Part shown: positions 24,154-24,963 of the stretch, in pieces
Numbering within the stretch: the stretch's first letter is position 1
Layout of the letters: each line of letters begins with the position of its first letter
DNA from: Escherichia phage P1
Reading direction: 5' to 3' (one strand)
Sequence record: MH445381.1
Length of the DNA: 64,000 bases
Made by a program: the position numbers and the translations under genes
The notes under the pieces: generated by a model
What the model saw: the letters and a program-made list of their open reading frames with translations, nothing else
Told to the model about the DNA's origin: nothing
Database searches by the model: none

Positions 24154-24963
24154 TTATTTGCTAAGAGCAGCGAATAATCGTTCGAAATCGATAGTATCTA
24201 TAGCACGCGTAAGCGCCGGAAGTTCAGCCTCAAAGTACCCGTGTCGATCGTAAAAGAAGGGACCGAAGAGCGAGGCATGTTGGATTCTACTTCGCCCCAG
24301 CCCGGACACACAGTTAAGCCCATTACCGGCTAAAAGGCTAAAAAACTTCTCTGGATTATCGTGGTAAAGCTGGGAATCAATGGTGGCGGTTAACTCTTCC
24401 ATAGGGAAGCACACCCGCCCTGTATCCCAGGGATATTTAGTCCGAAGCATAAACATTGCTTTCAGCAATTCACATTGAGCGCGGATCGCGTCCGGTTCAT
24501 AGCCAGATATGGAGACATAAGCCACGTCCCTCATTCCTGCGTCATCTTTGAAAGTCACGATAGAAGTAACATCCAGCTCTTTTTCGAAAGAGCAAGCAGC
24601 ATCTACTGGACGCTGAAGTAAATCATTCGACTTAATGCGCTCGAGAATCCCTCCCCACATATCATTTAGATATTCGATATGAGCCAAAACCTTATCAAGA
24701 CACTCTCGTGTAAACCATTCAGTATGCCCGCCACCGACGCTTTTCTCCCACGGCGCATTCCAGGGGAAAAAGGTTGCGTGTAAAGCCCGCTCAAGATTAA
24801 CCATTGCCAAACGCGTACCACGATAGACCCGTGAAAGCGCAAAATCGGGACTCACTTGTAGCCCTTTAAACCGTGCCAATGGACCACATGAAATGCCGAT
24901 TTTAAAAGTATCTCCGTTCTCTGGCACCAGAACGTAGAGGTAGTGTTGTTTCTCTTCTTGCAT
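24154..24963 (-). CDS. T5orf172 / GIY-YIG-like domain protein
   Basis: N-terminal YLYVLVP...FKIGIS...RFKGL...HTEWF resembles the T5orf172 (MUG113) domain; ~170-aa C-terminal extension. Confidence 0.5.
   Translation of the reverse strand: MQEEKQHYLYVLVPENGDTFKIGISCGPLARFKGLQVSPDFALSRVYRGTRLAMVNLERALHATFFPWNAPWEKSVGGGHTEWFTRECLDKVLAHIEYLNDMWGGILERIKSNDLLQRPVDAACSFEKELDVTSIVTFKDDAGMRDVAYVSISGYEPDAIRAQCELLKAMFMLRTKYPWDTGRVCFPMEELTATIDSQLYHDNPEKFFSLLAGNGLNCVSGLGRSRIQHASLFGPFFYDRHGYFEAELPALTRAIDTIDFERLFAALSK

Follow-up and report, generated by a model that had tools for sequence, protein, structure and literature searches.

Bacteriophage P1 is the founding member of the phage-plasmids and the textbook example of an iteron plasmid. 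In its IncY replicon (NC_005856) the modules run from oriR through repA and the incA iterons to the partition operon par, and no gene lies between incA and the par promoter, Ppar. Here we describe a gene that occupies this junction in a P1-like phage-plasmid deposited as Escherichia phage P1 (MH445381.1), of which we analysed a 64-kb stretch (64,000 nucleotides), hereafter the window. We call the minus-strand open reading frame (ORF) at 24154–24963 gene X, and all coordinates are positions in the window unless stated otherwise.

The closest described systems come from lytic phages. T5orf172 homing endonuclease genes (HEGs) occur at genetic-exchange boundaries between phages (PMC10448857, Barth, Dunham & Seed 2023). 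Gene X resembles the T5orf172 HEGs of phage ICP1 and the seg-type GIY-YIG HEGs of phage T4 in its nuclease family and as a small stand-alone gene between essential conserved genes; it also shares with them presence or absence in close relatives, a seat at an exchange boundary, dispensability, degeneration and a modular, fast-evolving non-catalytic domain. It differs from phage HEGs in that it sits in a plasmid-maintenance module expressed in lysogeny rather than in a lytic-phage genome, and in that exchange involves only the whole cassette. Compared with the ICP1 T5orf172 HEGs its domain order is reversed, the nuclease being N-terminal, and an acidic orphan C-terminal domain takes the place of the CapR/DUF723 zinc finger. 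A second relevant system is ICP1 Odn (Gp88), in which a T5orf172 nuclease is fused to a RepA-derived domain and which cuts the iteron origin of its rival (PMC8263062, Barth et al. 2021). Like Odn, X would combine a T5orf172 nuclease with a second domain related to initiator winged-helix domains, in X at the level of the predicted fold only; X and Odn are also alike in their link to iteron replicons and in that rival replicon modules are exchanged as units of RepA plus origin.

We tentatively propose, with somewhat less than even confidence, that X is a homing-endonuclease-like selfish or competition nuclease which is carried by the replicon cassette and is not a replication gene. We favour this reading because the nuclease is intact, occupies a single locus, is present in some elements and absent from others, sits at an exchange boundary, is under weak constraint and carries a fast-evolving second domain. 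The T5orf172 domain family and the HEG and Odn concepts are already known, and our literature search found no paper that discusses gene X. The novelty lies in the orphan C-terminal domain, in the exclusive residence within a plasmid replicon cassette and in the connection with switching of replicon type.

Gene X in an exchangeable replicon cassette

The segment 21700–26400 of the window is 100% identical to the GenBank 'P1' isolates MH422554 and MH445380 and 98.7–99.8% identical to phages phi456, JL22, SJ46, Ro157c2YLVW and RCS47, while the match to P1 itself is limited to the par half. The window belongs with the P1-like phage-plasmids of SJ46/RCS47 ('p0111') type, p0111 being a replicon type named in the phage-plasmid literature (PMC11165635). 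In a blastn comparison the window is 99.2% identical to P1 as far as 24087; similarity then ceases and returns only at 26336, at 96.6% identity. The left edge, 24087, corresponds to P1 nt 61315 and lies 19 bp upstream of the Ppar −35 element; the right edge, 26336, corresponds to P1 nt 62807 and separates the last incC iteron from the GATC/DnaA part of oriR. Between these edges a 2248-bp cassette stands in for 1491 bp of P1 that comprise the incC iterons, repA and incA. Besides X and a hairpin, it carries origin iterons, incA-like iterons whose sequence differs from that of P1, and a RepA that is only 39% identical to P1 RepA and 45–48% identical to RepFIB RepA. A composition check revealed no GC anomaly.

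The architecture around X is nevertheless that of P1. The GATC/DnaA side of oriR and the par operon are 97–99% identical, and the cassette has the same layout, with five direct origin iterons, then repA, then two to four iterons in one orientation and four or five in the other. This iteron layout is common to P1 incA and to the cassettes of the relatives L003, L004 and L006 introduced below. The original prediction had placed X between incA-like iterons and par and had taken P1 to lack the gene; both points hold, with P1 passing from incA to Ppar through a spacer of ~170 bp. Its further claim that X was inserted into the P1 replicon does not, because the whole specificity segment is a different cassette.

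To find relatives of X we searched 1.84 billion representative proteins exhaustively, which gave 74 hits. The C-terminal domain was covered only by P0004 (44% identical) and by fragments of the window's own allele; the remaining matches concern the N-terminal domain alone. A profile search added P0010 and P0011, and a hidden Markov model (HMM) of the C-terminal domain, run against 77 retrieved proteins, recovered only X alleles and their fragments. All three diverged relatives sit between repA and parA of P1-like elements. One is on L003 (95.7 kb), with a p0111-like RepA 81% identical to that of the window and the same iteron. Another is on the Salmonella elements L004/L005 (90–93 kb), of which L004 has an IncY-like RepA 83% identical to that of P1 and P1-like iterons. 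The last is on L006, from a faecal metagenome, with a third RepA type and a third iteron. Neither PLSDB nor INPHARED contains a P0010-type cassette or one like those of L003 and L004. L003 and L004 belong to a diverged P1-like lineage whose major head protein is ~80% identical to that of P1 (Logan ERR2144811; SRR6505940 / Salmonella GCA_007478465.1). The L003 gene call for X is stretched to 311 residues through the iterons, which yields repeated 'AYSQH' peptides.

Comparison of these elements places the exchange edge repeatedly just beyond X. L003 and L004 have backbones that are 94–98.6% identical, but their cassettes are non-homologous and contain different X alleles; beyond the X stop, similarity returns after 84 bp in L003 and after 63 bp in L004. 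L006 and L118 share a backbone (84–86%), and their homology is back ~55 bp past the X stop. In the window, the boundary with P1 at 24087/24088 lies 66 bp past the X stop. Exchange edges thus fall 55–85 bp 3' of the X stop in three backbone lineages, and X, like HEGs, adjoins a recombination boundary. The opposite cassette boundary is always found ~170–200 bp upstream of repA. These alignments indicate that, in the three lineages, the iterons and RepA are exchanged together, along with X where there is one, and that X forms the par-proximal end of the exchanged segment.

A third P1-like lineage comprises L006, L106, L118, L122 and L123, with ParA 57% and ParB 41% identical to the P1 proteins. 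Its par type is combined with at least three RepA types, and X occurs only with that of L006. Because one par type pairs with at least three RepA types, the par and rep modules reassort independently. The X and RepA trees are incongruent: L006 X groups with L004 X, whereas L006 RepA does not group with L004 RepA. We also considered a general association of T5orf172 proteins with replicons and rejected it, since the nearest outside T5orf172 protein with retrievable context (P0012, N-terminal domain 43% identical) is not next to a replicon; it lies beside a helix-turn-helix (HTH) repressor and toxin-antitoxin genes. A further homology search for the wider family gave only 3 proteins.

Domains of the gene X protein

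The N-terminal domain of X matches the Pfam family T5orf172 (PF10544, GIY-YIG superfamily) with 26.9 bits, above the gathering cut-off of 20 (E = 6.9e-6), which bears out the domain assignment of the original prediction. The match spans X residues 8–85, equivalent to profile positions 2–87 of 101. Conservation was judged on 69 aligned T5orf172 domains from the exhaustive search. X has all of the core residues, Tyr10, Lys21, Gly23, Arg31, Glu58, His62, Gly79, Thr81, Glu82, Trp83 and Phe84, each of which is present in 88–99% of the 69 domains. Together these form the core motif, comprised of a Tyr in β1, K-I-G in β2, an Arg in helix 1, Glu/His in helix 2 and G-x-T-E-W-F with the metal-binding Glu, and they are invariant across the four X alleles. 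The domain has the α/β fold of GIY-YIG nucleases. Compared with Slx1 and the UPF0213 (YhbQ-like) GIY-YIG nucleases, to which its identity is 11–17%, X has no RING or partner-binding domain. X is thus probably a free-standing nuclease that belongs to the T5orf172 branch within the GIY-YIG superfamily.

Database labels for the protein vary. Over its full length X falls in PHROGs family 2876, 'unknown function', and the RefSeq label in RCS47 is 'GIY-YIG nuclease family protein'; in phage phi456 (OR339795) X is mislabelled 'terminase small subunit' and in other records 'hypothetical'. For the neighbouring RepA, RefSeq phage records give 'replication helicase', and MOB-suite/PLSDB type the p0111 replicon as IncHI1B.

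The remaining ~150 residues (116–269), which the original prediction had described as an unknown C-terminal extension, have no match in Pfam, NCBIfam, PADLOC or PDB sequences. This domain is acidic. Its isoelectric point (pI) is 5.0–5.5 and that of the whole protein 5.4–5.6 in all four alleles, compared with ~9.4 for RepA. In both predicted models, which were built on five sequences, the best matches after nuclease ones are winged-helix domains of iteron-binding initiators, with marginal scores. The top Foldseek match is 6h24 (E 0.07), and generic winged-helix domains (PCI, Cdc6, JetB) score almost as high as initiators against the C-domain models; the initiator-like character of the predicted fold is hence a weak lead rather than a result. 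Alignment of the C-domain alignment with five RepA sequences by hhalign returned a probability of 0.2%, and X has no Rep Pfam match. A duplication of RepA as the source of the C-domain was rejected at the sequence level on the hhalign value, and an Odn-type targeting domain with sequence homology to an initiator was not found. For the pair of window and L003, identity is 33% in the C-domain, 59% in the N-domain and 81% in RepA. The C-domain is thus the fastest of the three to diverge, and RepA is by far more conserved.

Distribution, decay and local setting of gene X

To determine how widely X occurs, we searched PLSDB by tblastn, which located it in 401 records, all at ≥90% identity. The window-type RepA is present at ≥90% identity in ~396 records, and the next RepA relatives, of the RepFIB type, are below 60%. 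X is therefore linked about 1:1 with the p0111-type RepA and accompanies essentially every one. A 17-kb deletion derivative still holds upfA-repA-X-parAB. Among 5426 complete E. coli genomes 412 (about 8%) contain X, and 414 of 421 copies are on plasmids. A scan of genome contigs for X returned one locus, with the same allele.

P1-type repA-incA DNA is found in 374 PLSDB records, and X is absent from every one of these IncY cassettes, as it is from 68 IMG/VR loci with a P1-type or related RepA and a repA-parA gap of 341–562 bp. A tblastn search with P0010, a divergent allele whose N-domain allows all others to be picked up, likewise reached p0111-type PLSDB records only. As for HEGs, X is thus present in one set of elements (p0111-type) and absent in another (IncY-type) with 97–99% identical flanks. 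An exact pair with and without X inside one cassette type was not found among the loci; L107 is a different sub-type (repA DNA 77% identical). Because X is tied to the p0111 RepA and absent from IncY cassettes, we regard it as a conserved passenger of the replicon cassette and not as variable cargo. The original prediction had taken conservation of the gene at this position in all P1-like genomes as an outcome that would speak against it, and such conservation is partial. X is there in four cassette types, the IncY-like one of L004 included, and with essentially every p0111 RepA, but it is missing from P1-type IncY cassettes. In the P1-type cassettes (IMG/VR L056–L121) the distance from the repA stop to the parA start is 403 bp in 30 loci and 561–562 bp, the P1 length, in 22, which suggests incA arrays with different iteron numbers.

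We next quantified selection as the mean pairwise ratio of nonsynonymous to synonymous substitution rates (dN/dS) over 45 p0111-type loci, using the same loci for all four genes. The ratio is 0.32 for X, 0.017 for repA, 0.002 for parA and 0.049 for parB. Three independent nonsense alleles account for 7 of the 45 loci, the other 38 being intact: W68*, S112* (in pO111_2, the namesake of the replicon type) and Q228* (in phage SJ46). Elsewhere, an IS200/IS605-family element that encodes a Y1 transposase (141 residues) and a TnpB-like protein (389 residues) lies within X at 6295–8057 of L048 (IMGVR_UViG_2645727563_000002), with loss of 229 bp of X; IS1 interrupts X in NZ_CP100998.1; and a truncated allele of 191 residues and frameshifted fragments are also found. 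At least six independent events have thus inactivated X, a degeneration like that of HEGs. Because broken alleles recur and P1 lacks the gene, X is dispensable for replication and partition, and in this respect the accessory-gene idea of the original prediction stands. Over longer times the picture is one of conservation, as the four alleles, diverged to 25% identity, keep the frame, a similar length and every residue of the catalytic motif. Taken together, X decays in the short term but is conserved in the long term, under weak constraint.

On the minus strand the order of features is upfA, five direct iterons, repA, an iteron array in two orientations, X, a hairpin with a T-run, Ppar, parA and parB (Table 1). 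RepA scores 27.1 bits with Pfam Rep3_C (cut-off 21.1) and 21.8 with Rep3_N, just below the cut-off of 22.4; a Rep_3 initiator with cognate direct repeats flanking its gene makes this a Rep_3-type iteron replicon. The cassette iterons share one consensus, with clear copies at the origin (five), within repA (one) and in the array (six), plus degenerate and partial copies. The copy within the repA coding sequence, GTTGACTATAAGCGA on the repA-sense strand at 25521–25535, has one mismatch and is kept at the same place in the 81%-identical repA of L003 (L003 7611–7625); it might serve in autoregulation or handcuffing. The open repA frame reaches back to a TTG (26174), which precedes the RefSeq ATG (26138) by 36 nt, and the ATG is the likelier start because the L003 homologue begins near it. 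At the par-proximal cassette edge, downstream of X, the 24 nt at 24089–24112 match the complement of an origin iteron and its spacer at 75% of positions, and TGCACGATT forms an exact core of 9 nt. A true iteron here would mean that X has iterons on both sides, but by our estimate such a match is no more than chance would give, and neither L003 nor L004 shows a counterpart. An Rfam scan of 21500–27000 identified no RNA family.

Table 1 Features of the replicon cassette and its flanks in the window
Feature	Position	Strand	Basis or remark
parB	21771–22772	minus	Pfam ParB; 100% amino acid identity to P1 ParB
parA	22789–23985	minus	Pfam HTH_54/AAA_31; 99.7% amino acid identity to P1 ParA
par promoter (P1 Ppar homologue), just beyond the cassette	24040–24068	minus	TGTACA-17-TATTAT; inside 99%-identical block with annotated P1 Ppar and ParA operator
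Exchangeable replicon cassette, 2248 bp	24088–26335		In place of P1 nt 61316–62806; blastn against P1
Intrinsic-terminator-like hairpin and T-run, 8 nt past X stop	24122–24146	minus	GCCCCTGAACGGGGC then TTTTTTGTGC
Gene X, 269 residues, T5orf172/GIY-YIG-type nuclease with orphan C-terminal domain	24154–24963	minus	ORF, ATG start; Pfam; PHROG 2876
X C-terminal orphan domain, residues 116–269	24157–24618	minus	Acidic; winged-helix-like fold (predicted)
X N-terminal nuclease domain, residues 1–115	24619–24963	minus	
incA-like iteron array	24998–25252		Between repA and X
Array iterons, inverted	25122–25136, 25060–25074, 25028–25042, 24998–25012		
Array iterons, same orientation as repA ('+')	25238–25252, 25214–25228		
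Further array copies	near 25086–25105; 25044–25057		One degenerate copy; one partial copy
repA, 'p0111' type, Rep_3 iteron initiator	25254–26138	minus	Pfam Rep3_C, Rep3_N
Origin iterons, five direct, 21–23 bp spacing	26220–26319		incC equivalent, presumably overlapping the repA promoter
P1-homologous rest of oriR (GATC/DnaA-box side)	begins 26336		blastn and P1 features
upfA	26474–26866	minus	

The position of X relative to the iterons bears on its expression. In all four alleles the X ATG lies 20–35 bp past the last iteron, in the orientation of repA. A consensus scan between repA and X detected no promoter-like and no terminator-like site, and on manual reading the iterons hold −10-like hexamers (TATAGT/CATAGT) with no −35 at the proper spacing that could give X a promoter of its own. 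Transcription into X would therefore start in, or cross, DNA that is occupied by RepA, and X would be coupled to RepA levels. The stretch past the last iteron is too short for a separate promoter, and this geometry makes regulation of X by the iterons plausible, as the original prediction had suggested.

Possible functions of gene X

As a homing-endonuclease-like nuclease, X would be transcribed either by polymerases that start at the repA promoter, which is autoregulated, and read on into X, or from a promoter within the iteron array, and its expression would peak when RepA is scarce, for example on entering a new cell. It would then cut the DNA of a co-resident, related P1-like element with a different cassette; elements with other cassettes are competitors because par is shared. 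The cut may destroy the rival, or its repair from the homologous flanks (oriR/upfA and, at the opposite end, Ppar/parA) may convert the cassette of the rival to that of X. Such conversion would add to the frequent switching between IncY and p0111, of which 17 instances were inferred from a Salmonella phage-plasmid phylogeny with 193 tips (PMC11165635). The fast-evolving, acidic, winged-helix-like C-domain would provide specificity for the target or for a partner.

Several observations weigh against this proposal. Cleavage, target and regulation by X are all inferred. X alone was never found in the co-circulating 'empty' IncY cassettes (0/374 in PLSDB, 0/68 in IMG/VR), and because no IncY cassette has gained X by itself, classical single-gene homing is not seen, only exchange of the whole cassette. 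Exchange of this kind could come about by ordinary homologous recombination between conserved flanks, with no nuclease involved. The P1 incA-Ppar spacer contains no X remnant above noise in tblastn and blastn-short searches with all four alleles, and so points neither to loss of X from P1 nor to its gain elsewhere. In the X protein no CapR/DUF723 zinc finger, NUMOD, HTH or RepA_N module is recognisable and there is no CxxC pattern, and the acidity of X and of its C-domain is unusual for a sequence-specific DNA-binding module; an acidic C-domain fits a protein-binding winged helix better than a classical DNA reader. Finally, a clear hairpin follows X in two of the four alleles, those of the window and L006, whereas none is clear in L003 or L004.

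A more specific version of competition is that X arms an incompatibility module. Its winged-helix domain would dock on the RepA-iteron complexes or the iteron DNA of a rival and the T5orf172 domain would cut, so that the rival is lost or converted; X would then be a plasmid-borne analogue of Odn that actively drives the frequent IncY/p0111 switching of Enterobacteriaceae. We consider this quite unlikely. Explanations in which X does not attack related replicons must be set beside both. X might be anti-phage defence or superinfection-exclusion cargo, which degrades unrelated phage DNA or triggers abortive infection and thereby protects the lysogen. It has the nuclease domain for this and, as an accessory gene of a prophage-plasmid, shows fast evolution and frequent loss, and P1-like phage-plasmids do carry defence systems (bioRxiv 10.1101/2025.09.12.675607). 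However, X matched none of the 5027 PADLOC models (PADLOC-DB v2), even at E ≤ 1. Its family is confined to a single junction in P1-like elements, although a defence gene would normally be met in many elements or islands, and the slot always holds the same family, unlike the varied systems of a defence hotspot. There is also no sensor or partner gene, and X co-segregates with the replicon cassette and not with the phage backbone. A defence role is thus unlikely.

The constant position of X between the incA-type iterons, which it directly follows, and Ppar, always in the orientation of repA, would suit an accessory factor linked to RepA. Its C-domain would bind RepA or RepA-iteron complexes and tune copy number, handcuffing or the par promoter, with X acting as a nickase or as a domesticated binder, for which CapR of PLE provides a precedent among T5orf172 proteins (PMC10448857). 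The weak fold matches to initiator WH1/winged-helix domains, which mediate Rep dimerisation, and the opposite pI values of X (~5.5) and RepA (~9.4) are consistent with such binding. Against it, P1 and all IncY cassettes function without X, the reference elements SJ46 and pO111_2 have nonsense alleles as part of the 7 null loci among 45, and the dN/dS of X is ~19 times that of repA. Moreover, the X and RepA trees disagree, the catalytic residues are fully conserved, contrary to a purely binding role, and the C-domain has no sequence homology to RepA, all of which makes this role rather improbable. The same recurrent nonsense, IS-disrupted and truncated alleles, with the raised dN/dS, would be expected if X were a decaying, functionless passenger, an old HEG or nuclease that was fixed in the cassette ancestor and now erodes while hitch-hiking. 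This we regard as very improbable, as a dN/dS of 0.32 is well under 1, 38 of 45 loci are intact, and the retention of frame and motif by four alleles at 25% identity requires long-term purifying selection on nuclease function.

About half of the natural relatives of P1 carry the alternative p0111 cassette, and typing of IncY versus p0111 serves the surveillance of phage-plasmids that carry antimicrobial resistance, in which X is variously misannotated. If X does attack rivals or convert their cassettes, as a homing-endonuclease-like nuclease would, this would account for the frequent change of replicon type among phage-plasmids whose backbones are otherwise clonal. Plasmid incompatibility would gain a mechanism based on a nuclease, and the ideas of Odn and of HEGs at exchange boundaries would extend from lytic phages to plasmid maintenance modules.

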